Positions 4,117-42,799 of a stretch of DNA of 64,000 nucleotides are shown one piece after another. Under the pieces are notes generated by a model that saw nothing but the letters and a program-made list of their open reading frames with translations, was not told where the DNA came from and ran no database searches. The stretch spans positions 1,229 through 65,228 of the forward strand of contig JACPDF010000023.1 in NCBI GenBank assembly GCA_016184145.1. Reading direction: 5' to 3'. Position 1 is the stretch's first letter, and the number at the start of each line of letters is the position of its first letter. A program made the position numbers and the translations under genes. The stretch comes from Candidatus Woesearchaeota archaeon. GTDB lineage: Archaea > Nanobdellota > Nanobdellia > Woesearchaeales > GW2011-AR4.

Positions 4117-4154
4117 TCGCATTTATTTTTCCTGATTTAAGAAGCGTATTCTGC

Positions 4155-6617: not shown

Positions 6618-6895
6618 AATAAAATGAATAGGATAGCAATATTAAATAATAATGCCAATAAGTTCACAAACAAGTGCTCAATTATTTGAGCAAAATAAAT
6701 ATGGCTTGCAAATTAATAAAAAACGCAATAAAAATGAAAAATAATTACCGAGCGTTTTTGCAATAAAAAAGCATGAAGGCAAAAACGCAGGCTATGATTA
6801 AATATTTTTTATTGCCCGAATGAGATAAATTGTGAAAGCAAAAAATGACAAAGCAAATGATTGTACAAAATACGTTAAAAATGGCTGAGGTGTAA
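6618..6895. repeat. intergenic repeat module family 1, copy 1 (reverse orientation); hairpin core 6749-6794
   Basis: AGCGTTTTTGC-N17-GCAAAAACGCAGG, plus more than 150 nt of flanking homology (e.g. aaaaatatttaatcatagcctgcgtttttgcc identical) to the 47162-47509 copy. Confidence 0.6.
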
Positions 6896-7396
6896 TTGAA
6901 AATGGCATTCATGAAACGGGACGTTAACATTGGATTGTTGATTCTGATAATAGCTGCTGTCATAGTATTCAGCAGCTTCAGCGTCTACTACCAAAGCACT
7001 TTCAAGAATGTTTCCCTGGAATACCAGAACAAGCTTGAGCAGCTGAGCCAGATAACAACAGAGCTGTCAAAGCAGAAGCAGGAGCTTAATCAGACCTACA
7101 CTTTAAGGACAAAGATAGAGGAGGATAAAAAGACTCTTGATGTTAAATACACTGAAGTCAGGGATGAGAATAATCAGCTCTCAAGCGACAATACAAACCT
7201 GCGCTTGGAGGTTTCAAGCGCAAAAAGCCAACTGGCGGAAGCGCAAATTGAGCTTGAAAACAAAAAAGTGCAATTGGCGCAGACGCAGGCAGATTTAGCA
7301 ACAGCTAACAGTAAAATAAGCAGCCTGAATAGCGATTTGGATGATGTATGTGCTGCTTTGATCGCTACAGGAGGAACGCACGACGAGTGTGATTAA
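6896..7396 (+). CDS. membrane-anchored coiled-coil protein
   Basis: N-terminal TM helix then heptad-rich Q/E/L/K sequence; C-terminal CxnC. Confidence 0.45.
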   Translation: MKMAFMKRDVNIGLLILIIAAVIVFSSFSVYYQSTFKNVSLEYQNKLEQLSQITTELSKQKQELNQTYTLRTKIEEDKKTLDVKYTEVRDENNQLSSDNTNLRLEVSSAKSQLAEAQIELENKKVQLAQTQADLATANSKISSLNSDLDDVCAALIATGGTHDECD

Positions 7397-7514
7397 AGTT
7401 ATGCCCAAAACAAGAAAACATACGAAACTTTCAAAACAAGAGAGAAAAAGATTGGGCTGGAAGCCAGGGAGCCGTCTCGGTGTTTCGGGATACCACAGGT
7501 ATCCCTAGACGCTG

Positions 7515-8312
7515 TTGTACGGGCACGTACAAATGAAAACCTTCATAAAAGTAGTAAAGGAAATCAATAATACTTTAAATTTCCTGATTATTTTCGAGAG
7601 CGCATTAAATGCAGCCATTTTCTTCCTTGTAGTCTATCTGCTCTTGTCGCTGATAAACCTTTACCCAATACTTGCAGTTATTCCTGCTGCAGTTTATCTT
7701 GCGGCAAGGATGTATGCAAACTCCAAGGCTGACAAAAGAGTTATTGTGGAAAATAAGTATGCGCCCCTGAAAGAAAAATTAAGGACTGCTGCGGACAATA
7801 TCAAAGAGGAAAACCCTGTTGTCAACGAGCTGCAGGAAGAGGTAATTTACGACCTTAAAAATGTGGGTTTGTCATCTTTCATAAACACAAAACAGGTTTC
7901 CTACAAGATACTTGCAACCATACTGCTGTCTTTTGCAATAGTTTTTGCGACAACCATGAACCTTTATATTGTTGACTTGAACCAGTTTCTGGGCAGTATA
8001 CCCGACACTATCAGCAAATTAAGCCTGATGAAAAGAAGCTCTAACACTCCAATAGGGGATGTAAATGAAAGCAGCGACATTTACGGTGACAGCAAGCTCG
8101 CTGTTTTAGGAGAGCAGCAGATTGACATACGGATAAAGCCCGTAAATTATGAGGTCAGCGTAAGGGAAGAAGGCGATGTTGAGCAGAAGCAGTTCGATGA
8201 GATTTTCCCGAGAGAGGTTGATATCAAGCAGTCATCTGCTTATGAGGAAAACATACCCCAAGAGCAGCAGGAGCTTGTCAAAAACTATTTTAACAAGCTT
8301 GCAGGAGGATAA
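7515..8312 (+). CDS. hypothetical membrane protein in the MoxR/vWA cluster
   Basis: 265-aa ORF with two hydrophobic segments and an acidic C-terminus. Confidence 0.4.
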   Translation: MYGHVQMKTFIKVVKEINNTLNFLIIFESALNAAIFFLVVYLLLSLINLYPILAVIPAAVYLAARMYANSKADKRVIVENKYAPLKEKLRTAADNIKEENPVVNELQEEVIYDLKNVGLSSFINTKQVSYKILATILLSFAIVFATTMNLYIVDLNQFLGSIPDTISKLSLMKRSSNTPIGDVNESSDIYGDSKLAVLGEQQIDIRIKPVNYEVSVREEGDVEQKQFDEIFPREVDIKQSSAYEENIPQEQQELVKNYFNKLAGG

Positions 8313-8530
8313 AATAAAGCAATGTATTTGTGCCAATAGTACATATTATTGCAAAAAACAACTGATTAAAAAGAAAAAATATAAATAGTGCAAAAGAGGT
8401 GAAATATCATGAAACACGAAAAAACTTCAAAGAAGTTGTTTGTGTCCCAAAAATCACAAAGTGATTTTTTAGGACAAAAAAAATTTGAAATACAAATTTT
8501 TGAGCTTCATAAAATCGCAGGGGTGATTTT

Positions 8531-9466
8531 ATGAAGAACTATAAGCATGTCTTTGATGCTGTTTTCAAGGAAACAAATAGGGTTATAGTGGGCCAGAATA
8601 ATGTCATAGAGCAGGTTCTTGTGGCTATCATATGCGACGGCAATGCGCTACTGGAAGGATACCCAGGCCTCGCTAAAACGCTGGTTGTAAAGACTTTGGC
8701 TGATATAATGAACCTGAAATTCAGCCGCATCCAGCATACTCCGGACCTGATGCCTTCTGACATTACAGGAACGTACATAATAGAGGAGACATCCGGAAAA
8801 AGAAACTTCAAATTCCAGCCCGGGCCCATATTCGCAAACATTGTTCTTGCAGACGAGATAAACAGGGCCACCCCGAAAACCCAGTCAGCTTTATTGGAAG
8901 CGATGCAGGAAAAGCAGGTTACAATAGGCACAAATACATTCAAGCTCGACCTTCCTTTTTTTGTGCTCGCAACCCAAAACCCGATTGAGCAGGAAGGAAC
9001 TTATCCTTTGCCTGAGGCGCAGGCAGACAGGTTTTTGCTTAAAATAAAGGTAGGCTATCCTTCTTTTGACGAAGAAATGGAAATTGTAGAGAGGTTTGCA
9101 TCAACGCGAACAGAGCAGAAATTAAAGACCATGCTTAACAAGAACCATTTGCTGAGCCTTCAGGCCCTGACAAGGCAGGTTCCGATTGCAAACGACATAA
9201 AATCACGGGCTTTGAAAATAATAGCAGCCACAAGGACAAATAAGGATGTAATCAATTACGGGGCTTCCCCAAGGGCATCCATAGGAATCATTCTTGCTTC
9301 AAAGGCGCTGGCATTGATAAAAGGCAGGAACCATGTGAGCAATGAGGACATAAACGAGATGGCCTACCCCATACTGAGGCACCGCGTCATACTTAACTTT
9401 GAGGCAGAGAGGAAGGGAATGACTACGGATGATGCCATTAAGCACATACTTGACAAGATTAAATAA
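8531..9466 (+). CDS. MoxR-family AAA+ ATPase
   Basis: VGQNNVIEQVLVAIICDGNALLEGYPGLAKT Walker A region, ADEINRATPKTQSALLEAMQE, typical MoxR length. Confidence 0.85.
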   Translation: MKNYKHVFDAVFKETNRVIVGQNNVIEQVLVAIICDGNALLEGYPGLAKTLVVKTLADIMNLKFSRIQHTPDLMPSDITGTYIIEETSGKRNFKFQPGPIFANIVLADEINRATPKTQSALLEAMQEKQVTIGTNTFKLDLPFFVLATQNPIEQEGTYPLPEAQADRFLLKIKVGYPSFDEEMEIVERFASTRTEQKLKTMLNKNHLLSLQALTRQVPIANDIKSRALKIIAATRTNKDVINYGASPRASIGIILASKALALIKGRNHVSNEDINEMAYPILRHRVILNFEAERKGMTTDDAIKHILDKIK

Positions 9467-9502
9467 AAACCAGTTTGATAGAATTGAGAAAAATCATTCC
9501 CG

Positions 9503-9666
9503 GGTTATTTAGGCGCCGCCAATACTGCGGCGCATTTATTGGGCAGGAAGAGTTCACAGCCGCCAAGCATAACGCGGCGGCGCTAAATGTTATCACAAAC
9601 GCCCCGTATTGTGGGCGGTTGATCACACTGGAGTCCAATGATGCGAGCGCGTAATGTCGCGAGCCT
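9503..9666. other. GC-rich structured intergenic patch, candidate small RNA
   Basis: three consecutive GC stem-loops (GCGCCGC/GCGGCGC; GCCGCC/GGCGGC; CGCCC/GGGCG) in an otherwise AT-rich region. Confidence 0.2.
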
Positions 9667-9716
9667 AAAATTAAACGGATTATGATTTTTAGAAAACTAA
9701 AATATTTATTTAAAAA

Positions 9717-10565
9717 ATGATTACCACTGATTTTCTCGACCAGCTGAACAGGTTCCATTTAGTGGTAAAGAAGAGGGTCACATCCAATTATGTGGGTCCC
9801 AGAAGGTCGATTGCGGCAGGAAGGGGCTTGACATTTAAAGAACACAGGCTGTATGCTCCAGGAGACGACATAAGGCTGATAGACTGGAGAGTATTTGCCA
9901 GGACTGATGACTTGCATGTAAAGACATTTGAGGAGGAAAGGAACCTTACAGTGCACCTTGTCATAGATGCAAGCGCCTCGATGGGATTTGGCAAGCCGAT
10001 AAGCAAGTTTGACTATGCCTCAATGATAGGAGTTGGCTTTGCTTACCTTTCCATGAGGGAAAATGAGAAATTCCAGTTCTCCACATTTAATGAAAAGCTG
10101 GACATATTTCAGTCAAGGAGAGGGATGTCCCAGCTTGCAAGCATGGTCTACCATCTCAACAACACAAAAACGCAAGGTACTTCAAAATTCATGGATGCAA
10201 TGCTGCAGTACAAGAAAGTCATCGGGACAAGGTCTCTGCTTGTCCTTGTGTCGGATTTTTTGGTTGACATTAATGAGATTATAGGCGGCCTTTACACTCT
10301 TGGAGACCATGAGATAAAGATAATACAGGTGCTTGACCCGATAGAAAAAGAGCTCAAATACCATGGCGACTTTAAGCTGATAGACAGCGAGACGCAAGGC
10401 AAGCTAAGGACTTTCATAAGCCCAAGATTAAGGGTAGAGTACCAGGAGATGCTGGACAGGCACGTCGCAAGATTAGAGGAAACGTGCAACGCCCTGGGAA
10501 TGCATTTCTACCAGATAACAACAGATACGCCGATATTTGACGCTTTCTATAGGGTTTTAGAATAG
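9717..10565 (+). CDS. DUF58-family protein (vWA-like), usual MoxR partner
   Basis: HLVIDASASMGFG motif; directly downstream of the MoxR gene. Confidence 0.75.
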   Translation: MITTDFLDQLNRFHLVVKKRVTSNYVGPRRSIAAGRGLTFKEHRLYAPGDDIRLIDWRVFARTDDLHVKTFEEERNLTVHLVIDASASMGFGKPISKFDYASMIGVGFAYLSMRENEKFQFSTFNEKLDIFQSRRGMSQLASMVYHLNNTKTQGTSKFMDAMLQYKKVIGTRSLLVLVSDFLVDINEIIGGLYTLGDHEIKIIQVLDPIEKELKYHGDFKLIDSETQGKLRTFISPRLRVEYQEMLDRHVARLEETCNALGMHFYQITTDTPIFDAFYRVLE

Positions 10566-11682: not shown

Positions 11683-13452
11683 GTGAGGGTAAATAAAAAT
11701 CTGGCAATAGTATTTTTTTTGTTTGTTGTTGTCTTGATAAGCTATATCAATGTTTTCCGGAATGATTTTGCATGGGACGATAAATTCTTTATTGTGGATA
11801 ATACCCGCATAAGGGATTTGGGCAATATACCAAGTTTTTTTGCAGAACCGTCTCCAGGCAACTTGTACAGGCCTTTAAGGGAAGCATTTTACACTTTAAA
11901 TTACCAGCTATGGCAGCTTAATAAATTTGGCTACCACTTAAACAGCTTGCTGCTGCATTTTTTTGCTGCATTAATTTTGTTTTTTATAACGTTAAAAATA
12001 ACAAATAAGGCATTATTTTCTTTTGTTGCGTCATTATTTTTTGCTGCACATCCTATCCATACGGAAAGAATAACTAATATGACCGGAACTTTTGATGTTT
12101 TCGGCATTTTATTTTTCTTATTGTCGTTTTTATTTTATATAAATTATTCGAAAAAAGACAAAAAAAATTATTATTATTTTTCAATATTATTTTATTTATT
12201 GGCAATTTTCTCGACGGAGGAGGCAATAACATTAATTTTGATTTTATTTTTATATGAGTTCTCTTTCAATTACGAATTCAGCTTGGATAATATTAAATTA
12301 TTATCAAAAAAATACATCCCCTACATAATTGCAACAATTGTTTACCTGATGATCAGATTTTCTGTTGTGGGGCAGTTAGGCAGGACAGAAAGCTACTTTC
12401 AGCAGAGTTTTTTCGGAACTTTGCTGACGACAACAAAAATAATCGTTCTTTACATTGCAATGCTGTTTTTCCCTTCAAATTTAGTTATAGAAAGGTATGT
12501 AAAATTTGAAACATCTATTTTTAGTGCTGCTTTTCTGTTCTCGTTTATTATTTTATTATTGATAATTTTTTGCTTTATAAAATCCTATAAAAAATCAAAA
12601 ATCTTGTTTTTTTCAATAGGCTGGTTTTTCATAACATTGCTGCCGTTCACAAATTTATTTCCCCAGGTAACAATAATGGCAGAAAGGTACCTGTATTTGC
12701 CGTCTTTTGGTTTTGGCTTATTTTTAACAATTTTACTATTCCAGATAGATAAGGTAAAACAGATAAAAAAACACGGCAGAATTATAATAACTGTGTCAGC
12801 TATACTAATAACACTGTCTTATGCAGCTTTAACAATACAAAGGAATTCCGAATGGAGAGATAATTTTACATTACTAACAAAGGATGCTGAAAAAAATCCT
12901 TATGGCACAAGAATCCATCATGCAATTGCATTGCACTACAGAAATAATGGAGATTATGAGAATGCATTTAAATATGCATCAAGGGCAATTGAGCTAAGCA
13001 GCAAAAATTACAATGCATATGAAAATTTGGGGACAATCCTGGCGTATCAGAAAAAATATGACGAGGCTATAAAATTCTATAATAAGGCTCTTGAATTAAA
13101 CCCGAAATTTTATCTTGCAATGAATAATTTAGGCCTGGTCTATAGCTATATGGGTGATTCGAACACCTCTGTATATTACCTGAAAAAAGCAATAGAAATA
13201 GATCCAAAGCTGTCGAAGGCGTATAATGATTTAGGCACTGTTTACGCCCAGATGGGCGAATTTGATTCAGCAATAAAAGAAATGGAAAAGTCAATAGAAA
13301 TAAACCATTATAATGCTGACTATTATTATAATTTAGCTGTTATATATGAATATTTAAAAGATAAAGCGAAAGCGGCAGAACTCCTGGCAAAAGCATTGGA
13401 GATAGAGCCTGACAACAAAAAAATCAGGAATAAATTAGCAAGTATAAAATGA
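11683..13452 (+). CDS. GT-C-like multi-pass membrane protein with C-terminal TPR repeats (GTG start)
   Basis: about 12 TM helices, then TPR-type repeats (NAYENLGTILAYQKKYDEAIKFYNKALELNP...). Confidence 0.6.
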   Translation: MRVNKNLAIVFFLFVVVLISYINVFRNDFAWDDKFFIVDNTRIRDLGNIPSFFAEPSPGNLYRPLREAFYTLNYQLWQLNKFGYHLNSLLLHFFAALILFFITLKITNKALFSFVASLFFAAHPIHTERITNMTGTFDVFGILFFLLSFLFYINYSKKDKKNYYYFSILFYLLAIFSTEEAITLILILFLYEFSFNYEFSLDNIKLLSKKYIPYIIATIVYLMIRFSVVGQLGRTESYFQQSFFGTLLTTTKIIVLYIAMLFFPSNLVIERYVKFETSIFSAAFLFSFIILLLIIFCFIKSYKKSKILFFSIGWFFITLLPFTNLFPQVTIMAERYLYLPSFGFGLFLTILLFQIDKVKQIKKHGRIIITVSAILITLSYAALTIQRNSEWRDNFTLLTKDAEKNPYGTRIHHAIALHYRNNGDYENAFKYASRAIELSSKNYNAYENLGTILAYQKKYDEAIKFYNKALELNPKFYLAMNNLGLVYSYMGDSNTSVYYLKKAIEIDPKLSKAYNDLGTVYAQMGEFDSAIKEMEKSIEINHYNADYYYNLAVIYEYLKDKAKAAELLAKALEIEPDNKKIRNKLASIK

Positions 13453-15203
13453 GATACAAACAGGAGTTAGCAGCATTGATTATTTTTTTGATAATATCTA
13501 TAGCTTTTGTTTATCCTGTTTTCCAGAACATAAAAAATTGGGGCATACATGACTGGGACCAGCATTTAATGCTAAATGCTATGCCTAAAGAAACAATTTT
13601 GGAATTTGGGCAGTTCCCTTTATGGAGCCCTTATTATTGCGGCGGCAATGTCATGCTTGCAAACCCCCAAAGCAGCTTCTTAAGCCCATTGTTTGTTTTT
13701 GTCTTGATTTTTGGAGAGCTAACAGGGCTGAAATTATTGATTTTTATTTATTTGGTGACTGGCTTATTTGGGATGTTTTTGCTGGCAAGGCACTTAAAAA
13801 TCCCGCTAATCCCTTCATACCTAACCGCATTTTTATTTATGTTAAGCGGCTTGTATGCTATGCATATTTCTGTAGGCCATACTGTGTGGATGCAAATGGC
13901 CCTTATCCCTTATGTTTTTTTGTTTTATCTGAAAAGCTTAAACGACGCTAAATTTTTATTTCTCGCTGCCTTGTTCATGGCATTTATTTTCCTAGGAGGG
14001 GGAATTTACCCTTTGCTTTTAATTGCCTTATTTTTGGTTTTTTATTCTGCGCTAATCACCATAAAAGACTGGAGAAAATCAAAAGCAAAATACTTGCGAA
14101 GCATGGCTATTGTTTTTTTGCTGTTTGTTTTATTGGGTTCTGTAAAATTAATCCCGATGCTTGAGTTTGCAAAGGATCATTCTTATGTTAAAAAAGACGT
14201 GCAGGACAATGACATTGGGAAAATGATTGAGGCCTTAACTTTTAGGGATATAACATCAAGAATGGGTTATATGTATGATTACAGGATAAACGGCTATACA
14301 GAAGCAATATGGAATTGGCATGAATACCATGCGTATATTGGGTTCTTGCCTCTGCTATTGTTTTTAATGGCCTCTATTTTGCTGTTTAGAAAAGAATGGC
14401 CTTTGATAGTATTGGCAATTTTATTTTTCCTTATTGCGTGGGGCGACAATGCAATAATAAATATTTGGGGCTTATTAAGGCAGCTGCCGTTCATTTCTGA
14501 TCTGCACGGCTCATCAAGATTCCTGGCCATGTTTATATTTCCAGCGTCATTGATTATAGGAAAAGCTGCTGCAATTTTTGTGCATAAAAAAATGATTATT
14601 GGATTTAAAAATAAAAAATTCAATTTTTTGAAAATAATCCTGATTTTGCTTGTTTTAGCGGTTTTTATTGATTTGTTTTTGGTTAATTCCCAATTGTTTG
14701 CGCATTCTTTTGTTGTAAAGCCGATAAAAATAGAAAAACAGGAATTTGCGCAAGTTACTGGCGTAAAGGAAAAAACCCAATATCCCACGTTTTTAGCTAA
14801 TTTAGGCCTTGTTAATTGCTTCGAAAAGGTCAAGCCAGAGCTTAAGGCAATACCCAAATACGATACAAAAACGGGTGCTATATATACCAATTATATAGGA
14901 GAATCTTACATATTGGAAAGCAATAATACGCAGCAAATTACTTATTTTTCCCCAAATAAAGTAAAAGTAAAAGCAAATGAAAGCGGTACATTGGTATTAA
15001 ACCAGAACTATGCAAAGGGATGGAAAATTAAGGATGGCAAAACAAAAAATGTAAATGGGCTTATTGGGGCTATGGTTGAGGCAAACCAAGAGCTTACATT
15101 CTACTATCTGCCAAATAGTTTCCTATTAGGGCTATTTGTTTCTATGTTCACACTAATTGCCGCAGCATTTTATATTTCTAAAGCATCTAAGAAAAGGGGT
15201 TAA
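13449..15203 (+). CDS. large polytopic membrane protein (putative glycosyltransferase, YfhO/DUF2079-like)
   Basis: 584 aa, more than 10 TM helices, ATGA overlap with the upstream TPR gene, precedes the S-layer-like gene. Confidence 0.45.
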   Translation: MRYKQELAALIIFLIISIAFVYPVFQNIKNWGIHDWDQHLMLNAMPKETILEFGQFPLWSPYYCGGNVMLANPQSSFLSPLFVFVLIFGELTGLKLLIFIYLVTGLFGMFLLARHLKIPLIPSYLTAFLFMLSGLYAMHISVGHTVWMQMALIPYVFLFYLKSLNDAKFLFLAALFMAFIFLGGGIYPLLLIALFLVFYSALITIKDWRKSKAKYLRSMAIVFLLFVLLGSVKLIPMLEFAKDHSYVKKDVQDNDIGKMIEALTFRDITSRMGYMYDYRINGYTEAIWNWHEYHAYIGFLPLLLFLMASILLFRKEWPLIVLAILFFLIAWGDNAIINIWGLLRQLPFISDLHGSSRFLAMFIFPASLIIGKAAAIFVHKKMIIGFKNKKFNFLKIILILLVLAVFIDLFLVNSQLFAHSFVVKPIKIEKQEFAQVTGVKEKTQYPTFLANLGLVNCFEKVKPELKAIPKYDTKTGAIYTNYIGESYILESNNTQQITYFSPNKVKVKANESGTLVLNQNYAKGWKIKDGKTKNVNGLIGAMVEANQELTFYYLPNSFLLGLFVSMFTLIAAAFYISKASKKRG

Positions 15204-24947: not shown

Positions 24948-25415
24948 CTATTTTGCTTTCTTTAAATTATCTCTATAAAAACCAATTTCTTCTTCATTTA
25001 GGTTTGAAATAAAATTATCAAACTCAGAAATAAACGTTTTTGCTTCTTGAAGCATCCTTTCTACCTCCTCTTCCTTGCCTACTTTCATGTAATATTGCGC
25101 ATCAATTCTTTTGTTTTTATGCTCATTTATTATTTTTGTTTTTTCTTCTCCAAGGAGATGTGTTGCTGCTAAGATGGAACAAAAATGATTTTCACATTTT
25201 ATGCCTATCCTCTGAAGGAAAGAGTACAATGCATAATATTCCGCGTAATAAATTACAACTGTAGCCCAAAGCAGGTCACCATCTTTAAAATTCTTTTCAG
25301 CTCTTTTTAATGAAGACTTGCTTTCTTTAAGATAAGATTTTGCCAGTCTTTCATTAGATTCAAATATCCTTAGGCCATCTTTTAACTTAAAGCACCATCT
25401 TATTTTATTTTGCAT
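24948..25415 (-). CDS. HEPN-domain protein (partner of the adjacent nucleotidyltransferase)
   Basis: all-helical, about 155 aa, motif region KNKRIDAQYY; 11-nt overlap with the upstream MNT gene. Confidence 0.55.
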   Translation of the reverse strand: MQNKIRWCFKLKDGLRIFESNERLAKSYLKESKSSLKRAEKNFKDGDLLWATVVIYYAEYYALYSFLQRIGIKCENHFCSILAATHLLGEEKTKIINEHKNKRIDAQYYMKVGKEEEVERMLQEAKTFISEFDNFISNLNEEEIGFYRDNLKKAK

Positions 25416-25983
25416 TTTTCCTCCACATAGCATTAACATAAAAGGAATGGTTATTCAGGACTATATGATTTTCCGCAACCTCCTTAAGCAAGGTGTTATC
25501 GTCTTCGGATAAAAATTGGTCGTATGTCAAATCTATTTTATGTATCTTATAGGGGAGCAAATGAGACGGAATATCAAAGTTTCCATCAAGTTTTGATATG
25601 GCTAGAATATCTAAGTCTGAACCTGCTTTTGCAGCAAATTTGGCAAAACTGCCAAACACTATTAAAGGCATATTTGACTCCAATCCCTTAATAAATGTCT
25701 TGGATAGAGGATACTTACCCAAAAATAACAGGGTTTTATAAATCTCGGATTGCAGCAAATAAAATTTTGTTTCTATATTGTCTAGGTTTAGCCCAAAGTA
25801 TTTGTTCTTCCCCCTTATAGTACCCCTTAATATCTTGCTTTTTTCAAGTTCTGATAACAAATTTTGTGTTGTTTTTAGAGGTATTTTAGTTAATTCGCTT
25901 ATTTCCCTAAGATAAAACTGATTAGTATAACTCCCAAGATAAAGCGTCAAAAGTGCCAGTCTTTTGTTCCTTTTTTGATACAT
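25405..25983 (-). CDS. nucleotidyltransferase (MNT) with N-terminal winged-helix domain
   Basis: LIVFGSFAKFAAKAGSDLDILAI (GS...DxD) polymerase-beta NTase motif. Confidence 0.65.
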   Translation of the reverse strand: MYQKRNKRLALLTLYLGSYTNQFYLREISELTKIPLKTTQNLLSELEKSKILRGTIRGKNKYFGLNLDNIETKFYLLQSEIYKTLLFLGKYPLSKTFIKGLESNMPLIVFGSFAKFAAKAGSDLDILAISKLDGNFDIPSHLLPYKIHKIDLTYDQFLSEDDNTLLKEVAENHIVLNNHSFYVNAMWRKNAK

Positions 25984-26963: not shown

Positions 26964-27671
26964 TTGTTTTTCACAATCTTTAAAAATCAGCAGAAATTAT
27001 TTCAGGTTATGGACTTAAAAACGATAAAAAATAAGATACCAAAAGAGCTGTATAATATCCTTGAAAAAGAAATCAAGGCATTAAGGCCTGCCCAGACAAA
27101 AGCCGTGGAAAAAGGCCTTCTGGAAGGAAAAAATCTCCTTGTATGCACTCCTACAGCATCGGGAAAGACCTTGATAGCGGAATTAGCAGCATTAAAGTCC
27201 ATTTTGGAAGGCAGTGGAAAAGCCATATATATAGTCCCGTTAAAGGCGCTTGCATCCGAAAAATTCAGGGATTTTAAGCAAAGATACGGCCATTTGATTA
27301 AAGTTGCTTTGTCAATTGGGGATATAGATTCTGCAGATTCCTATCTGGTTGATTACGACCTTATCATTACAACATCAGAGAAATTAGATAGTTTAATAAG
27401 GCATCATGCTCCATGGCTAAGCCTGATATCAACAATAATTATAGACGAGATTCATTTATTAAATGACCCGGGAAGGGGCCCTACATTGGAAATATTAATC
27501 ACAATATTAAGGCAATTACTGAAAAAATCCCAAATCATAGGATTGTCAGCCACAATTGGGAATCCTGAAGAATTGGCAGAATGGCTAAAAGCAGAGCTGG
27601 TAATTGATGATTGGAGACCGGTAAAGCTGCAAAAAGGGATTTATTTGAATGGGGAGATTGAGTTTGAATAA
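26964..27671 (+). pseudogene. Hel308/Ski2-like DEAD/DEAH helicase, N-terminal RecA domain only (probable truncated remnant)
   Basis: Walker A CTPTASGKT and DEIH present, but the ORF stops after about 235 aa with no domain 2; the stop abuts the first 47-bp repeat of the hicBA cassette. Confidence 0.4.
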
Positions 27672-27781
27672 TTAAAGCCCCAGCCCCTCAACAACAAGCC
27701 TAGGCTCAAATTCCTTTAAGTACGAATGCTTTTGCCATTAAATACAAAAGTTTTAAAAACACCTTAATAATAGTATAGACT

Positions 27782-28045
27782 ATGGAAAAGAAATACTTTA
27801 TGGATATTGTGATTAATAAGGAAAAATTAAGCGATGGAAGTTCTGTTTTTGTAGCTCATTGCCTTACTTTGGGCATTGCCAGCCAAGGCAATGATATGGA
27901 CGAGGCTATGAAAAATATTAAAGAGGCCATTGAATTATACCTAGAAGAGCAACCAGAAAAATATGATATATTAAGCAACGAGCCCCCTTTATTTTCTGTT
28001 GTTGAGGTGACTAAGGGTGCCAAAGCTGCCAGTGTTATCAGGTAA
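27782..28045 (+). CDS. hicB: HicB-like antitoxin (UPF0150 fold)
   Basis: 87 aa, FVAHCLTLGIASQGNDMDEAMKNIKEAIELYLE; overlaps hicA. Confidence 0.55.
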   Translation: MEKKYFMDIVINKEKLSDGSSVFVAHCLTLGIASQGNDMDEAMKNIKEAIELYLEEQPEKYDILSNEPPLFSVVEVTKGAKAASVIR

Positions 28046-28244
28046 AGACATTATCAAAGTTCTTTCTAAAATAGGCTTTGAGCATGTGAGAACAAAAGGA
28101 AGCCATGCAATTTTAAATAAGCAAACAGAAAAAGGCAAGGTAACTGTGCCAGTTCCGTTGCATAAAGAGCTTGCAAAAGGGACATTAAAAAGTATAATGA
28201 AGCAAGCAGGATTAAGTTTAGAGGATCTTCTTAAATTATTATAA
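28017..28244 (+). CDS. hicA: HicA toxin (YcfA-like mRNA interferase)
   Basis: LSGKDIIKVLSKIGFEHVRTKGSHAIL signature, 75 aa. Confidence 0.7.
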   Translation: MPKLPVLSGKDIIKVLSKIGFEHVRTKGSHAILNKQTEKGKVTVPVPLHKELAKGTLKSIMKQAGLSLEDLLKLL

Positions 28245-29549
28245 CTAAAGCCCCAAGCTCTCAACAATAATCCTGGGCTCAAATTCCTTTAAATCCTTAT
28301 ATTCCTGGCCAACGCCCAAATACATTATCGGTTTTTTTGTTATGTAGCTTACAGAAATTGCTGCCCCTCCTTTCTCGTCGACATCGGCTTTTGCCAATAT
28401 TAAGCCGTCTATCCCTACAGCATCATTAAAGCTCTGGGCTTGCTCCACGCAGTCATTGCCGGTTATTGATTCCCCGACAAATACCTTTAAATCAGGCTTT
28501 GCAACTCTCATTATCTTCTTCATCTCTTCCATCAGGTTCTGCTGTGAATGCAGTCTTCCGGCTGTATCTATCAAAACAGCATCAGCATTCTTGGCTTTTG
28601 CATGCTTTATTGCATCGAAAGCTACAGCTGCTGGATCAGAGCCGTAATCATGCCTTATCATCTTCACCCCTAATTTGTCTGCATGCTGCTGCAATTGCTC
28701 AATTGAAGCTGCCCTGAAAGTATCGGAAGCTGCGAGGACAACAGAAAGCTTGTTCTGCTTCAGCATGTTTGCGACTTTTGCTATGCTCGTTGTCTTTCCA
28801 GAGCCGTTAATGCCAAAGAATGCAATAACAAACGGCTTTTCGCCTTTATTCTTGATACTTTTTATCAAATTTATTTTATCCACGTTGAATAAATCTTCTA
28901 TGGAGCTTCTTAATGACTCTTTTATTATCTCTTCAACCCTTGTCCTTTTGATGGGCTTCTCAACTAGATTTTTGGACAAGTCATTTTTTATTTTATCTAT
29001 CACTTCCATAGCAACATTATTTTCCATCAGTATCAGCTCAAGCTCGGAAAACAAACTCTCAAACTTCTCCCGGCTTATTTTTGTGGTTGTTATTTTTTCC
29101 GTTATTCTGCTAAAAAAGCCCTTCTTCTTCTCCAATGCCTGCTCTTTAATTTCCTCTTTTATTCCTGCCTGAGGAGCTTGCTCTTCAATAGCAACTTTTT
29201 TTACGTACTCTAATTCCCTTAGCTCTTCCTCAAGTATATTATCTTCTGCATGTTCTTCTTCAGCAGCTTTCTCTTCGCTTATTTTTTCTTTTATTGGCTC
29301 TGTTTTTTCTTTAATTTCCTTTGTTTTTTGAGTTTCCTTTTGAATTATTTTTTCCGTTTCTATTGGCTTTTCCTTGATTATTGGCTTTGTTTTTTCTTCA
29401 GTTTCTACCGTTTTTTCCTTTTTTATTTGCTCTATTGCTGGCTCTATTGGCTTTTCTTTTATTGGCTCCTCTGCCAGCTTTTCTTCTCCTATCTTCCTAG
29501 AAATCTTTGAGATAGCTCCTTTTAGCTTTTCTTTTAAAAATTTGAACAT
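28245..29549 (-). CDS. ftsY: signal recognition particle receptor FtsY
   Basis: FFGINGSGKTTSIAK, DTAGR motifs; repetitive charged N-terminal region. Confidence 0.9.
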   Translation of the reverse strand: MFKFLKEKLKGAISKISRKIGEEKLAEEPIKEKPIEPAIEQIKKEKTVETEEKTKPIIKEKPIETEKIIQKETQKTKEIKEKTEPIKEKISEEKAAEEEHAEDNILEEELRELEYVKKVAIEEQAPQAGIKEEIKEQALEKKKGFFSRITEKITTTKISREKFESLFSELELILMENNVAMEVIDKIKNDLSKNLVEKPIKRTRVEEIIKESLRSSIEDLFNVDKINLIKSIKNKGEKPFVIAFFGINGSGKTTSIAKVANMLKQNKLSVVLAASDTFRAASIEQLQQHADKLGVKMIRHDYGSDPAAVAFDAIKHAKAKNADAVLIDTAGRLHSQQNLMEEMKKIMRVAKPDLKVFVGESITGNDCVEQAQSFNDAVGIDGLILAKADVDEKGGAAISVSYITKKPIMYLGVGQEYKDLKEFEPRIIVESLGL

Positions 29550-37579: not shown

Positions 37580-40500
37580 ATGAAAAAACCACTGTTATTT
37601 TTAATAAGCTGTACTTTGTTTTTGTTATTCTCCACAATATCTGTTACTGCACTTTTTGGGAGGGTTGCCTATAATCAGACATTTCATGATATTTGCTTTA
37701 AGATTAATGATGATTATTATCACTTCCTAATTGACCACACCCAGGCAGACAGCTGGCCTTGTGGTGGCATTGATATAACAGACGATTCCATAAGGCTAGA
37801 GTGTATAAGTGATTTTGACGGGGCGTTTCAACACCAGTATGCACCATGTAGGGTAAGTGGAGGTCAATCTTGCGGAAGGTTTAGCTTCTATTCAAACCAG
37901 GCCTATGGAGTACATACAAATTCTGAAGAGCCTAGCTGGGATCCCACAGGACTTTTTGATGGCACTACAACCATAGATGGATATCCTTACTCACAGTACC
38001 TTACAGAAAGCTTCCAACGGGCAAACAGCCCTGTTCCGCATAGATTTTATTCTGATGGCAATTCCTGTCCCTCAGCTATAATTCAATCCACTAGCCCCAA
38101 CAACGATTCATTTACGCACCAAAGGGAGAATACAATAACGATCAACACGGATGCTGTTTCTGAATGCAGGTATTCAAATGATTCAGCTTCAAACTTCGCC
38201 AACATGATATATTTTCAGAGTACAAATTCAAATGCTCACACATTTAGCTTTAATGCAACAGAATTGATAAATTACAGCTTCTATGTAAAATGCAACACTA
38301 CGCTTGGAGACGTGAATAATGAGCATTATATTTTTAGAATTAGAACTGAAAATTTTGCCCCAATAATTGTAAGATCAATCGGAACTTTAACTACTTTGGT
38401 AAACCAGACCTTCATTTATCACGTGTGGGCCTATGATCCGGATGGTGACAAAATAAACGTCTCTGATGATACTGATTTATTTGACATAGATAGCACCACC
38501 GGGTTTATAAACTTCATACCTTTAACAAATGGTACATACAAAATAAATATCAGCGTAAAAGATGACAACACCATAAAATCGTTGAGTTCGTATGAAATTA
38601 TGATGTTGGTTGTTCTTAATGAAAATGATACTATTGCCCCCAATATATCAATTATAAGCCCTCTGAACGGCTCGACAGTAACTACAAACTTCACATGGAT
38701 TAACGCAACCACGAATGAAAGCGCGACATGCAGTTACAAGCTTGAATACGAATGCAGCGACTGCGAGCCTGCTTTTACACAGATGAATAATACAGGAGGG
38801 GCTATACATAAGCATTATATCGATAATCTGGAAAATAAAAGCTATAATCTCACTGTAAGTTGCAAGGATGTGGCATTGAACAAAAAAAATGTTACAATAT
38901 CTTTTAATGTTGCCTTTCCTCAGCCTGCCTCTAGTGAAGGCGGTGGAGGCGGTGGAGGTGGTATAGCAAACATATCAAACCCCTACAACCTGACAATAAC
39001 TGTAAATTCGCCAACAAACAATTCAATAATCAATTCCATTTCCGTAGATTTAGACATTTCAACGGATAGATATGCTGTATGCAGATATAGTTTGGATTCC
39101 GGCATATTTAATTCTTTGGATAGAACAGTCGTGGTAACAAGTGACGCATGGAAAGTTGGAACCTCTACAAAAATATTGGAGATAAGCGAAGACCTTCTAA
39201 TTGGAACAAACAGGGAAACTTTGAGAAACATCACAACCTTTATAGACGATTCAGAGCTAAATGCCTTGGCATCTGGCACAGTTTCAAACTCAAAAGGGGA
39301 TGCTCCATATAACCAATACCTATATCTATTAGGGCCGGGAGCAGCAGCTCAAGTAAATACAGGTTATGTCATCTACACAGAAGATGACAATGACGTGACA
39401 GCAGATTTCCTGTACTTCAAATCAGGAACTGAAATAGCAAGATACCTTTTGGAATTTACAACCTCTCTTGAATCGGATGTTGATGACAATACTGGAACAG
39501 CAACAACAACAGGCCTTTACTTAACGGATTTTGAAGATGTTGATATAACTATGTTTGGCAAAACATATACAATCGTACAAGCGCAAAGAGTAAATTCAAC
39601 TGGAAATAATGTCAAATTAATTTTGATTTCTGGAGCTATAAGAGACACACTAGTGGAAGGAAACACAAAAACATACACAACCGATGGAAAAGACTATGAA
39701 GTTACAGTAGACTACGTAGACTCGAACAGCGCTAAGTTCACAATAAACGGAGAAAGCACAAGAGATTTGCTTGATGGAGACACAGATAAAATATCAGATG
39801 GGACCACAATAGGTGTTTCAGAGATATTGTACCAAGATTATGCTGGCGGTATCCACACCGTAACATTCTTCTTGGGAGCACAGAAAGTGGAGTTAACAGA
39901 TACGAACATAAGAGATGTTGCATCTTCCAATAACCTAAAAATTGATGATGAAACAATAGACGATGCGTATACCATCATAGAGGGAAGTGACAACAACAGC
40001 ACATTTAAGATAGGCAGGATACACGTAAACATGACTGCAGACGATGACTTTTATGTGCCAGCAGGAGGCAAATTAAGCGAGAATCCTGATATGAGTGAGC
40101 CGCAAGTTCTGTTTACGCAAAATTGGGACATAGGGTATTGGGGCTTAACTGACGAACCAATAGAAACTATTGAAATCGCAACTAGCGGTCCTAGTAGATA
40201 CATATTGAAGTTTAAAGATGGAGACGGAAGCGAAGCAAGCCTGCCTTTGGCAGAAGCTGTCGGGGCTTCAACACTAGAATTTGGAGAAAAAAACAGGGCA
40301 TTAGTCAATAGAGAAAATCTGGTTATAACCAAAGATGATTATTTAATTCTCACAGACAGCAGCGAAGAAAGAGGAAAAAGAAAAACATACGCATTGCAGT
40401 ATAAAGGCGCTGATAAGATCACTGCAGACAGCCACGTATTGAAATTTAAGGATTTGGGTAATGGAGAGACAATAGAACAGACTTATACAGACGCCAGCCC

Positions 40501-42799
40501 CTTAGCAACTTTAAAGTTAGGCGGTGCAGATTTCAAAGTCTATAAAGCGCCTGGAGCAAGTATTTCTGCTAATGATTTTGACATACAAGTTGATTTAGAT
40601 GCGGATAGTATTTTAGAAACCTCAGGAGAGTTTATATCAATAACTACTTGGTATGGCGCAGAAATAAACATAACAAATGAAACTGCCAATAGGATAGACT
40701 TCGCTGTTAAAACACCAGATGATGATAGAGACAGCAATGCAGAAGATAATGTCGAGACTTTACAAGCCACAGATTTAACCGGTTATGTATATGTGAGTTC
40801 TGATTCTGTTAACATTCAAAGGACAGGAAATTTGAATTTCAGGACTCCAGGTGGGGAGACTAATGTAGCTTATGCTTATACAAGCTATGGGACGTTTATA
40901 ACCCACAATATGCCATCAGATGAGCCAGCGACATTGGTAATTGAATACCCTGAAAGACAGAGAGAAGCGCTTGTTTATATTACAACACCCCAGCAAACAG
41001 AAAATACCTACAAAAAAACGTTAAATAACTTGGCAGAGGGGCAGCATACAATCCTGATAAACTGCACAGATTCGTTAGGAAAGCCATATACAGAATTTCT
41101 TGGCTTCGACACCGGAAAATTAATAAAAGACCAAAGTTTACAAATCACATTTAATAGCCCAATTAATAACTCGATTTTTTATGGCGATTATGTCAATTTG
41201 GATGTGTCTACGAACAAATCTGCGAATTGTTTGTATAGCCTTGATTATGGTACATACAACAACTTAACCAATCCCTTAATAATAAATGAAACTACCTTAG
41301 TCGATGTTAATGTTTCAATATTTGATGTACTAGTGGAGGGGGAGACTAAAACTTATTCAATAGGCAATTATGATTATGAAGTTACATTAAATTTTGTAAG
41401 TCCTACTGAAGCACAGTTCACAGTTAATGGTGAAACGATATCAAAGCTGGAAAATGGATTTATTGATTACCTTATAGATGGAACCATAATTGGGGTTGAT
41501 GAGATTGTATATGAAGATTTTGCTGGAGGTTTGCACTACGCATATTTCTTTTTAGGGACGGAAATTAACAGTACAACAATACTTAACATTACAAATTTTA
41601 ACACTATTCATTCGATAAACTTGACAAATTTGGATGAGGGTGAACATAATATTAAAGTCAAATGTAACGATATTGATGACAATTACAATAGTGATTTTTT
41701 AAATTTTAAATTTTTTAATAATATTTGCGTGACGAAATGGGAATGCTTAAATTTCTTGTGCGGTTCCGATGAAAGAAAAAGGTGCAACCAAGTTTTTGAC
41801 TTGAATAACTGTTATTCTAAAACTAATCTAGAGAAAGATTTGTACAATGGTGATTATAAAGAGTTTGAAGAAGTGTGTGATTATAATAATGATCACCTAT
41901 TTGGCAATTTTACAAATATTTCCCATAATCTTAATAACCTTAGCTTTGTAATAGAAAATGAAAGTATAAAAATATCAGAAGGAAACGAAACAATATTATT
42001 CTTTAATTTCAGTTTTATTAATTTTGAATTAAATTTTTTCAATATAACAATTCAAAAACAAAATAATCTTTCAACAAAAGGCTCAATTTTCATCTCCGGA
42101 ATAGATCTAACCTCCCAGAATAAAACTAAAACAGTTTATATGGACAAAATAAGCGGCAATAGAGTGTGCATTAAAGACGAAGAAGTTCTTTCAATAAATC
42201 AAATAACGTCTGATTGTTCTAATTCAAGCGAAATTTCTTTGATATGTGATGGTGCAACAAGGAGTGATTACGCATGCACCGATTTAGGAAACAAATATAA
42301 AATAGAAGGATTAATACACTCAGGAGCAATAGAATATACTTTCAATCCTGCACCAGAACCATCCCCACCATCTGGAGGCGGAGGAGGTGGTGGCGGAGGC
42401 GGAGGAGGTGGTGGTGGAGGTTCTGGGCTGTCTTACACCTGCAACATGGACTGGAGCTGCTCAGACTGGTCTGCTTGCGAGGCAGGCTGGGAAACAAGGA
42501 AATGTGATTTTGTAAAAGTTGCGCAGCACACACAGAGTGAAGAGTGCCCATCAATAGATAGTGTACCTGCTATGGCAAGAAAATGCGAAGTAATTCAAGA
42601 GTTGGAAAAAGAGATTAAGGGGGCAGAGGAAAGTGTAAATGATACAGCCAAAACTGAAGAAAGTAAAAATCAAATAACAGGAATGGCTGTTTCTGAAGTT
42701 GAGGGAAAACCAAACTTATTGGTTGGTATAGTATCTTTGATTTTAATAGTAACTATGGGGATTTTCTTGTATTATCGCTTATTTTTCAGAAAGAAATAA
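37580..42799 (+). CDS. giant surface protein (1739 aa): signal peptide, Ig-like/beta-rich domains, embedded S-layer-paralog block, poly-Gly linkers, Cys-rich stalk, C-terminal TM anchor
   Basis: N-terminal signal; residues about 520-1140 are about 75% identical to the 15574-18183 product; GGGGGGGGG and SGGGGGGGGGGGGGGGGSG runs; C-terminal LLVGIVSLILIVTMGIFLYYRLFFRKK. Confidence 0.7.
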   Translation: MKKPLLFLISCTLFLLFSTISVTALFGRVAYNQTFHDICFKINDDYYHFLIDHTQADSWPCGGIDITDDSIRLECISDFDGAFQHQYAPCRVSGGQSCGRFSFYSNQAYGVHTNSEEPSWDPTGLFDGTTTIDGYPYSQYLTESFQRANSPVPHRFYSDGNSCPSAIIQSTSPNNDSFTHQRENTITINTDAVSECRYSNDSASNFANMIYFQSTNSNAHTFSFNATELINYSFYVKCNTTLGDVNNEHYIFRIRTENFAPIIVRSIGTLTTLVNQTFIYHVWAYDPDGDKINVSDDTDLFDIDSTTGFINFIPLTNGTYKINISVKDDNTIKSLSSYEIMMLVVLNENDTIAPNISIISPLNGSTVTTNFTWINATTNESATCSYKLEYECSDCEPAFTQMNNTGGAIHKHYIDNLENKSYNLTVSCKDVALNKKNVTISFNVAFPQPASSEGGGGGGGGIANISNPYNLTITVNSPTNNSIINSISVDLDISTDRYAVCRYSLDSGIFNSLDRTVVVTSDAWKVGTSTKILEISEDLLIGTNRETLRNITTFIDDSELNALASGTVSNSKGDAPYNQYLYLLGPGAAAQVNTGYVIYTEDDNDVTADFLYFKSGTEIARYLLEFTTSLESDVDDNTGTATTTGLYLTDFEDVDITMFGKTYTIVQAQRVNSTGNNVKLILISGAIRDTLVEGNTKTYTTDGKDYEVTVDYVDSNSAKFTINGESTRDLLDGDTDKISDGTTIGVSEILYQDYAGGIHTVTFFLGAQKVELTDTNIRDVASSNNLKIDDETIDDAYTIIEGSDNNSTFKIGRIHVNMTADDDFYVPAGGKLSENPDMSEPQVLFTQNWDIGYWGLTDEPIETIEIATSGPSRYILKFKDGDGSEASLPLAEAVGASTLEFGEKNRALVNRENLVITKDDYLILTDSSEERGKRKTYALQYKGADKITADSHVLKFKDLGNGETIEQTYTDASPLATLKLGGADFKVYKAPGASISANDFDIQVDLDADSILETSGEFISITTWYGAEINITNETANRIDFAVKTPDDDRDSNAEDNVETLQATDLTGYVYVSSDSVNIQRTGNLNFRTPGGETNVAYAYTSYGTFITHNMPSDEPATLVIEYPERQREALVYITTPQQTENTYKKTLNNLAEGQHTILINCTDSLGKPYTEFLGFDTGKLIKDQSLQITFNSPINNSIFYGDYVNLDVSTNKSANCLYSLDYGTYNNLTNPLIINETTLVDVNVSIFDVLVEGETKTYSIGNYDYEVTLNFVSPTEAQFTVNGETISKLENGFIDYLIDGTIIGVDEIVYEDFAGGLHYAYFFLGTEINSTTILNITNFNTIHSINLTNLDEGEHNIKVKCNDIDDNYNSDFLNFKFFNNICVTKWECLNFLCGSDERKRCNQVFDLNNCYSKTNLEKDLYNGDYKEFEEVCDYNNDHLFGNFTNISHNLNNLSFVIENESIKISEGNETILFFNFSFINFELNFFNITIQKQNNLSTKGSIFISGIDLTSQNKTKTVYMDKISGNRVCIKDEEVLSINQITSDCSNSSEISLICDGATRSDYACTDLGNKYKIEGLIHSGAIEYTFNPAPEPSPPSGGGGGGGGGGGGGGGGSGLSYTCNMDWSCSDWSACEAGWETRKCDFVKVAQHTQSEECPSIDSVPAMARKCEVIQELEKEIKGAEESVNDTAKTEESKNQITGMAVSEVEGKPNLLVGIVSLILIVTMGIFLYYRLFFRKK
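39144..40990. repeat. about 1.85-kb paralogous block shared with the S-layer-like gene (15838-17745)
   Basis: DNA stretches such as gatgc(a/t)ccatataaccaata(c/t)ctatatctattagggcc are identical; protein identity about 75% over about 640 aa. Confidence 0.7.

Follow-up and report, generated by a model that had tools for sequence, protein, structure and literature searches.

Introduction

Insertion of restriction–modification (RM) units with long target duplication was reportedly described by Nobusato et al. in 2000 (Gene 259:99), a work known to us from reference lists. RM units with this footprint are small addictive inserts that carry no other mobility gene and are bracketed by direct repeats of more than 30 bp and of variable length, present in a single copy at the empty site (Furuta, Abe and Kobayashi 2010, PMC2853133). 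In many cases, the repeat extends into the 3' end of a neighbouring gene, as exemplified by a 46-bp repeat covering 15 bp of HI0105, and double-strand breakage by the R enzyme was suggested as the common cause (PMC2853133); the survey of long target duplications around RM units includes no archaeal case (PMC2853133; PMC3874152). Here, we analyze a similar footprint in a stretch of 64,000 nucleotides from a Candidatus Woesearchaeota archaeon (assembly GCA_016184145.1, contig JACPDF010000023.1, positions 1,229 to 65,228 of the forward strand; hereafter, the window), where a predicted toxin–antitoxin (TA) pair, hicBA, lies between two copies of the 3' end of ftsY, next to a short Hel308-like helicase gene.

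Two further types of described systems are relevant. Integrated elements of archaea, which encode integrases along with numerous other genes, often target the 3'-distal parts of protein-coding genes (Krupovic et al. 2019, PMC6563490). TA “islets” are tiny islands consisting of TA genes only, which occupy permissive hotspots between core genes and have no mobility genes (Belot et al. 2026, PMC13617665); they are modelled as selfish addictive modules left by the streamlining of a larger element and spread by double crossover in the flanking core genes, and no duplications are reported for them (PMC13617665). How chromosomal TA modules enter a genome without surrounding mobile-element genes is still described as unclear (PMC13617665). 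In the literature that we searched, which covers a part of all journals, no paper was found that describes duplicated gene ends on both sides of a TA cassette, and the terms “long target duplication” and “toxin-antitoxin” co-occurred only in reference lists.

The ftsY locus is similar to the RM units in having repeats longer than 30 bp (48–52 nt) and a single-copy empty site and, within the window, in the absence of mobility genes and in a repeat that is not of a multicopy type. As its insert is hicBA rather than an RM unit, it is an analogue, not a member, of the original class.

Results

Two copies of the ftsY end bracket a hicBA cassette

The initial annotation described two 47-bp direct repeats that are 41/47 identical, and the recomputed alignment of positions 27673-27719 and 28246-28292 gives the same identity. 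Gapless extension yields 52 nt (27668-27719 and 28241-28292; 45/52, or 87%), the extra ATAA at the repeat edge consisting of the terminal bases of the helicase open reading frame (ORF) in the left copy and of hicA in the right copy. In biological terms, the repeat unit is shorter, 48 nt (27672-27719 and 28245-28292), and corresponds to the 15 terminal codons of ftsY and its stop codon, read on the minus strand. The right copy (DR-R, 28245..28292, minus strand) is indeed the authentic, working ftsY 3' end: it terminates the intact 434-aa ORF of ftsY, the signal recognition particle (SRP) receptor gene (28245..29549, minus strand; Pfam SRP54, 4.3e-73), and encodes ...LKEFEPRIIVESLGL before the stop codon. 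The left copy (DR-L, 27672..27719, minus strand) is an orphan ftsY 3' end with an intact reading frame, encoding ...LKEFEPRLVVEGLGL and a stop, and is attached to no gene.

DR-L was initially taken for a degenerate duplicate, which is too simple a description, as its terminus LVVEGLGL is among the most common genuine FtsY C-termini (14/120 homologues); hence, each of the two copies encodes a genuine FtsY C-terminus. They differ by two synonymous changes, one change in the stop codon, and three conservative replacements. The spacer of a single nucleotide assumed between the helicase stop and the left repeat does not exist either: the helicase stop codon (27669-27671) abuts DR-L, whose pseudo stop codon begins at position 27672.

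The local alignment score of DR-L and the ftsY end is 27 standard deviations above that of shuffled tails. A search beyond the locus found no other match to the 48-mer in the 64-kb window at up to three mismatches, nor in 100 shuffles, and among the short-range repeats of the window the ftsY-end pair is the sole good one besides one pair of paralogous genes. The whole structure was recovered in three independent Logan assemblies (three sequencing runs) with 99.97-100% identity, which rules out an assembly artefact. A perfect AT-rich 15-nt inverted repeat with one arm in the helicase gene (27493-27507) and the other in hicB (27804-27818) is probably due to chance.

Between the repeats, as annotated, hicB and hicA are the only genes; a 62-nt leader with a putative promoter completes the insert, which comprises approximately 525 bp. 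The leader (27720..27781, plus strand) contains a BRE/TATA-like archaeal motif, AAAAGTTTTAAAAACA, at 27746-27761, inferred to act as the promoter. Its TATA centre is about 27 nt before the hicB ATG codon, implying a leaderless mRNA. Most of the homologous cassettes listed (45 in total) have the motif aaaG(T/A)TTTAAA(A/T)a at the same spacing before hicB, and the leader is homologous in loci L004, L171, and L172 (here and below, loci and contigs of other genomes are given by our labels). The promoter starts 26 nt past DR-L, and the hicA stop codon touches DR-R; no terminal inverted repeats were found at the cassette ends.

The hicB-like antitoxin gene (27782..28045, plus strand, 87 aa) has a weak match to Pfam HicB_lk_antitox (2.3e-4), under the curated cut-off, no match in NCBIfam, and only weak matches in PDB. 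Of its 426 homologues, several are labelled as HicB family antitoxins by NCBI or JGI, and in more than 70 of the 80 related loci a hicA homologue follows it directly, with overlapping coding regions. The hicA toxin gene (28017..28244, plus strand, 75 aa) starts with GTG, overlaps hicB by 29 nt, and has a strong match to Pfam HicA_toxin (PF07927, 2e-21) covering 58/58 profile positions, with the GSH motif present in the translation. Thus, hicBA is predicted to be a type II TA pair. It has in common with HicAB type II systems the HicA-domain toxin, the small HicB-like protein, the overlap of the genes, and one predicted promoter; it differs in the antitoxin-then-toxin order and in the short HicB (87 aa) with its weak profile match, the function being predicted. 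Viral carriage of the cassette was considered and rejected, IMG/VR containing no HicB relative and a single HicA relative with 47% identity.

Empty sites and age of the insertion

The initial annotation called for cassette-free relatives, in which the helicase gene and ftsY would be convergent, and these indeed exist. L005, L168, and the P0126 contig have no nucleotide between the helicase stop codon and the reverse-complemented stop codon of ftsY. Among 62 other convergent ftsY loci, the stop-to-stop spacing is -4 to 0 nt in eight, 4-49 nt in six, and 107-3793 nt in 48; the eight loci with spacing of 0 or -4 nt are L005 and seven loci of GTDB species. Uninterrupted genomes thus have the helicase gene and ftsY with zero spacer or sharing the four bases TTAA, and the repeat is present there in a single copy (L005, L168, and others). 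DR-L abuts the helicase stop codon exactly as the real ftsY end does at the empty sites L005 and L168. As the stop codons abut or overlap at the empty sites, hicBA is very probably an insertion that was accompanied by duplication of the ftsY end. It is positioned precisely at the tail-to-tail junction and leaves both flanking genes intact; at a spacer-free junction in a compact genome, both genes could be spared only if a gene end was duplicated.

Occupied gaps between the helicase gene and ftsY contain varied small genes, in particular, those of DUF4013, DUF4870, Yip1, and DoxX membrane proteins, MazF/DUF7557 pairs, and others. Judging by these gaps, the junction, which had no spacer in the ancestral state, is a hotspot of highly variable insertions.

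The closest relatives of the cassette are in L171 and L172 (identity of 90% for HicB, 97% for HicA, 91% for hicBA DNA, and 94-97% for the C-terminal half of FtsY). The order in these loci is helicase, methyltransferase insert, decayed copy of the ftsY end, the same leader and promoter, hicBA, and ftsY. The orphan copy is orthologous to DR-L (z = 14, with the promoter excluded) and carries a 1-nt or 3-nt deletion and, in L171, also an in-frame stop codon. The orphan copy being common to L171, L172, and the window, the duplication is older than the lineage split (~87% ftsY DNA identity), and the structure in the window is an old inherited relic rather than a fresh integration.

The methyltransferase gene between the helicase stop codon and the orphan ftsY end encodes 207 aa in L171, and the arrangement in L172 is the same. 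The hexamer GAATAA (the last helicase codon and the stop codon) is present on both sides of this insert (L171:159-164, 785-796), and the pair in L171 and L172 may be a short duplication or a junction microhomology.

In L004 and the P0392 contig, hicBA is found at the same site, 9 nt from the ftsY stop codon, with other small genes to the left; a candidate remnant of an orphan ftsY end in L004 was not significant (z 0.2) and was rejected. L004 and the empty L005, strains that are otherwise nearly identical but differ in the presence of hicBA, have 97% nucleotide identity in ftsY and 89% in the helicase gene, and this contrast across the junction points to homologous exchange with breakpoints at the helicase/ftsY hotspot.

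The repeat copies resemble two ftsY alleles

The C-terminus of FtsY reads I-V...E-G-LGL in the empty-site relatives L168, L005, and L169, and I-V...E-S-LGL at the working ends of the insertion-bearing clade (DR-R and L171), whereas the orphan ends (DR-L and L171) read V-V...E-G-LGL. The LVVESLGL terminus inferred for the donor occurs naturally in P0070. The two copies differ in the way expected if a single reciprocal crossover had joined two alleles of the ftsY end, as attL and attR would. Comparable elements are phage 21 and e14 in icd of Escherichia coli, each of which brings its own icd 3' terminus that differs at synonymous positions.

The nearest tails to DR-R and DR-L match them at 44/48 positions (L168) and 42/48 positions (L168 and L005), respectively, and none of the 63 ftsY tails matches either copy near-perfectly. 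Two candidate lines of evidence were discarded. The apparent boundary switch in a sliding-window analysis of mosaicism along ftsY is mostly due to the divergence of L168 itself at bases 49-96, and we do not rely on it; the P0005 contig, considered as a donor with an ESLGL-type FtsY beside hicBA, has a different neighbour, and no donor was found.

When the codon differences between working and orphan ends are pooled over nine loci, 20 are synonymous and 16 non-synonymous, and the two copies in L131 differ by seven synonymous and no non-synonymous changes in 12 codons, while free drift is expected to yield approximately 38% synonymous changes by our own rough calculation. This excess indicates that at least a part of the orphan copies are imported alleles, which would have evolved in a different genome, as functional gene ends, before travelling with the cassette. 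The opposite is suggested by several pairs whose copies are identical or almost so, and by the orphan copy in L010, which is frameshifted, as expected of a relic.

Duplicated gene ends around other cassettes

The same footprint is observed for other TA-like pairs at or beside the helicase/ftsY junction. The 3' end of the helicase gene is duplicated around DUF433/DUF5615 in L021 (33 nt, 100% identity), around genes of an RHH-UPF0175 protein and a 163-aa protein in L010 (38 nt), and around genes of a nucleotidyltransferase and a 145-aa protein in L020 (34 nt); the 5' end of the helicase gene is duplicated around genes of a nucleotidyltransferase and a weak-HEPN protein in L032 (58 nt, 95% identity). 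In L021, the promoter starts 1 nt past the repeat.

None of the 80 loci with hicA relatives is adjacent to ftsY, and many of these hicA loci are bracketed by the duplicated end of an adjacent gene. The genes whose ends are duplicated around hicBA encode EF-2 (L107, L119, L131, L133), Endo-dU (L087), MnmG (L163), an RNA methyltransferase (L157), and a MiaB-like protein, in the latter case with duplication of the 5' end (L142). At the threshold score of at least 20, flanking repeats were found for 11 out of 55 hicBA cassettes and for four out of 871 random pseudo-cassettes of the same size, two of the four control matches being the TA inserts of L021 and L010; two of the 11 repeat-flanked cassettes (L088 and L092) are retroelement repeat pairs, and these were left out of the class. 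The repeat length across events ranges from 23 to ~130 nt. No integrase was found among the reported Pfam families in ~15 repeat-flanked TA inserts or in 100 ORFs from 45 occupied gaps.

The repeats in L088 and L092, both metagenome contigs, were rejected as target duplications because each pair consists of the template repeat and the variable repeat of a diversity-generating retroelement: in L088, all 15 of 15 mismatches fall on template adenines. In both loci, hicBA is located between the template and the variable repeat (L088:250-317 and 1113-1180; L092:1196-1292 and 2105-2202), the template repeat lying by the reverse transcriptase ORF and the variable repeat being the 3' end of the target gene; this is the usual position of accessory genes. 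L166 and L128/L129 were also kept apart, since they contain arrays of regularly spaced repeats. In these loci, hicA or hicBA lies amid 40-190-nt repeats and other small TA-like genes (L166:1017-2127; L128 and L129: 241-350, 2468-2657, 3465-3564), and these may be integron-like cassette arrays. Duplications of tRNA ends beside hicBA in L132, L102, and L113, read by eye, were confirmed by neither ARAGORN nor Rfam and were dropped.

In Woesearchaeota genomes, long direct repeats also bracket single small ORFs without a Pfam family: a 97-aa ORF in L016 (7495-7641 and 8454-8600; 147 nt, 97% identity), a 178-aa ORF in L063 (1671-1736 and 2415-2480; 66 nt, 100%), and a 138-aa ORF in L073 (4654-4685 and 5107-5138; 32 nt, 91%). 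Hence, recognisable TA pairs are not the only inserts with this footprint.

The short helicase gene

The most likely start codon of the helicase gene is the ATG at 27009, not the TTG at 26964. It is a complete stand-alone gene of the Hel308 N-terminal (RecA1) part (27009..27671, plus strand, 220 aa; Pfam DEAD, 2.8e-33). Its product aligns to residues ~15-217 of the 700-720-aa Hel308/Hjm structures 2zj2 and 2p6r, in agreement with the initial annotation of RecA domain 1 only; the two RecA-like domains together with the winged-helix and ratchet domains (~700 aa) that define Hel308/Ski2 helicases are thus not all present, and a tblastn search found no C-terminal half in the window.

The annotation proceeded to suggest that the gene had been truncated by this insertion or by an earlier larger element, and expected a full-length helicase in the empty-site relatives. 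Both suggestions fail, as the empty-site genomes carry the same 220-aa gene and the ORF ends identically in insertion-free genomes. The 120 best homologues are mostly 84-94% identical, a few being lower, down to 64%; 115 of them are 218-223 aa long and a few reach 274 aa, and all 80 out of 80 loci of GTDB Woesearchaeota/Nanoarchaeota species match residues 1-219/220. The nearest relatives outside this cluster of short helicases are full-length proteins of the Hel308 type (700-760 aa, 50-61% identity). Hence, by its conservation, the short helicase is the stand-alone half of a split Hel308-like gene, normal in this clade, and the annotation trap of reading a short gene beside ftsY as insertion damage is corrected. 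The missing ~500 aa were found only in L064 among the loci examined, with the N-terminal half at 4001-4660 and the C-terminal half 1.7 kb downstream, at 6356-7882.

Neighbourhood of the locus and search for recombinases

The product of ftsY is 100% identical to the NCBI protein named FtsY from Candidatus Woesearchaeota. Its N-terminal extension (29150-29530) is of low complexity, rich in Lys, Glu, Ile, and Pro, and encoded by imperfect 84-87-nt repeats. ftsY is followed by genes encoding prefoldin alpha and PRPP synthase, and the helicase gene is preceded by one for a ROK kinase and by a HEPN/nucleotidyltransferase pair. The latter is a second TA-like pair, formed by overlapping genes on the minus strand (24948-25983; HEPN, 163 aa, and nucleotidyltransferase, 192 aa), which sits between the histidine phosphatase and ROK kinase genes and has no recognisable flanking direct repeat.

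The integrase that the initial annotation would have sought in the rest of the genome was not found in the window: neither the insert nor the 39 largest ORFs of the 64 kb contain an integrase, a transposase, another recombinase, Cas1, or IntI according to Pfam. Elsewhere in the window, a cluster at 2248-10565 comprising BatA/VWA, VWA, MoxR-type AAA ATPase, and DUF58 genes has the architecture of a Bat-like aerotolerance operon, and for two large ORFs, 37580-42799 (1739 aa) and 13449-15203 (584 aa), the Pfam search yielded nothing at E <= 1e-4.

Discussion

Proposed mechanism

The initial proposal of site-specific integration with attL/attR signatures holds in so far as the insertion is at the ftsY 3' end, the repeats are its junctions, and the copies show a reciprocal allele pattern; the integrase that it implies is lacking in the window. 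We favour, with a probability of roughly 45%, integration of a circular cassette with a portable ftsY end by one crossover, mediated by the host or by a trans-acting agent. An ancestor of the lineage would have acquired the self-contained ~525-bp hicBA cassette as circular or circularly permuted DNA, the circle carrying an ftsY end copied from an earlier host. Circular permutation would be needed because in repeat-less carriers such as L004 the ftsY end follows hicBA, whereas the orphan end precedes the cassette. A single reciprocal crossover between the resident IIVEGLGL end and the incoming LVVESLGL end, within the identical block CTCAACAA (27687-27694 and 28260-28267), would then integrate the circle in the Campbell fashion and produce two chimeric ends: the working one with the resident proximal and incoming distal parts (IIV-ESLGL), and the orphan one with the incoming proximal and resident distal parts (LVV-EGLGL). 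The junction of the circle would run from the hicA end through one copy of the ftsY end to GTACGAATGC, and the excised or empty allele would join the helicase ...GAATAA to TTAAAG/CTAAAG...ATCCTTATATTCC without hicBA.

As no recombinase was found in the cassette or in the window, short-homology recombination by the host would be the simplest agent, a trans-acting integrase being the alternative. TA addiction would select against cells in which the repeats recombine and the cassette is looped out and lost, and this could account for the persistence of repeat-flanked inserts and for the small inserts with this footprint being mostly TA pairs. Conserved gene ends would be favoured, since only these sequences are similar enough between species to recombine, and since abutting genes tolerate only insertions that regenerate a complete end.

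Several observations weigh against this mechanism. No circular form, donor genome, or recombinase was seen, and the identical blocks are short (8, 10, and 17 nt). The chimera pattern is based on ~7 informative bases and could be mimicked by three or four substitutions on the stem branch after in-place duplication; positions 12-13 do not sort cleanly among the nearest relatives. In L004 and P0392, hicBA has no recognisable second ftsY end. Several repeat pairs (L021, L142, L162) are 98-100% identical, as a plain target duplication would produce, and the 4-nt ATAA common to the helicase and hicA ends resembles a junction microhomology, which fits end-joining or template switching. Finally, the repeat search was limited to inserts of less than 3 kb and is thus biased to small cassettes, so that larger decayed elements may exist.

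Alternative explanations

The two latter features of the repeats lead to the strongest alternative, a long target duplication of ~50 nt made in place by a staggered break, template switching, or microhomology repair, with the differences between the copies being later substitutions. We regard it as doubtful but worth serious consideration. In addition to the near-identical pairs and the ATAA microhomology at the outer junction, it agrees with the footprint of RM units (repeats of more than 30 bp and of variable length, no mobility genes, and a single-copy empty site; PMC2853133), with the variation of repeat length between events, and with the use of both 3' and 5' gene ends (L032, L142), which suggests that the sole requirement is that the flanking gene stays whole. 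It is less compatible with the pooled 20:16 synonymous bias, and the 7:0 ratio in L131 is hard to obtain by unselected decay; the reciprocal chimera seen in the window and in L171 would require several coincident substitutions.

A remnant of a larger integrase-bearing element, a provirus or a plasmid, streamlined to the TA pair and its att repeats, seems improbable. Archaeal elements often use the 3'-distal parts of protein-coding genes (14/68 in Thaumarchaeota; PMC6563490), and the current model of bacterial TA islets postulates acquisition by a mobile element followed by streamlining (PMC13617665); moreover, the event is old, leaving time for decay, and DPANN genomes are extremely compact. 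However, the cassette boundaries are tight, also in independent events (1 nt in L021), neither the repeat-flanked TA inserts and occupied gaps nor the window yielded an integrase, and deletion pressure of this strength should have cleared the useless 48-nt orphan end as well.

A transposon, casposon, or integron cassette, with the repeats being a target-site duplication or two attC sites, is effectively excluded for the ftsY locus: even though casposons are known to target the 3' ends of EF-2 genes (PMC6563490), as some hicBA relatives do, and some hicA relatives (L166, L128/L129) lie in integron-like repeat arrays, the cassette has no terminal inverted repeats, no transposase, Cas1, or IntI was found in the window, the repeats are target-specific gene ends of 23-130 nt rather than fixed duplications of 2-15 nt, and the repeat, unlike attC, is the coding end of ftsY, present in a single copy at the empty sites.

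Significance and comparison with known systems

The single ftsY locus is of modest significance, and the weight lies in the recurrence across TA families and targets, which provides a concrete footprint for TA entry: a promoter-plus-TA cassette bracketed by the duplicated end of a conserved gene. Extending the integration of a circular cassette beyond ftsY, one may speculate that minimal TA cassettes in DPANN archaea and some bacteria are mobile units without a recombinase of their own, which use a conserved gene end as a portable “att”, integrate by short-homology crossover, can loop out, and persist because their loss kills the cell. This generalization is tentative, and we consider it rather unlikely as it stands; if true, it would extend the long-target-duplication footprint from RM units to addiction modules generally, and identify addiction, not DNA cleavage, as the common cause.

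Compared with the integrase-encoding elements of archaea, the ftsY locus has similar attL/attR-like repeats of a gene 3' end, a target gene that is kept intact, empty sites, and copies resembling two alleles. It differs in that no integrase was found and the insert is 0.5 kb long and consists of the TA pair only; further, the targets vary by event. As these targets are so different (ftsY, the 3' and 5' ends of the helicase gene, EF-2, Endo-dU, MnmG), no single site-specific enzyme explains all of them.

Similarly to TA islets, the insert contains only a TA pair, lies between core genes, and has no mobility genes, and spread by homologous recombination has been proposed for the islets. In the ftsY locus, by contrast, the duplicated gene end on either side of the insert points to single-crossover or duplicative insertion.

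The closest precedent is the RM units, for which the footprint was described 25 years ago. The differences are that HicA belongs to an RNase family and is not a DNA-cleaving restriction enzyme, that the host is a DPANN archaeon, and that the repeat copies are allele-like with a synonymous bias. Since HicA is not a restriction enzyme, double-strand breakage by an R enzyme cannot be the cause here, and the occurrence of the footprint around RNase-type TA pairs argues against a role of DNA cleavage, pointing instead to addiction, the property common to RM and TA modules. Thus, relative to the RM precedent, the TA module, the archaeal host, and the allele-like repeats are new, while the footprint itself is of a known, mechanistically unsolved kind.

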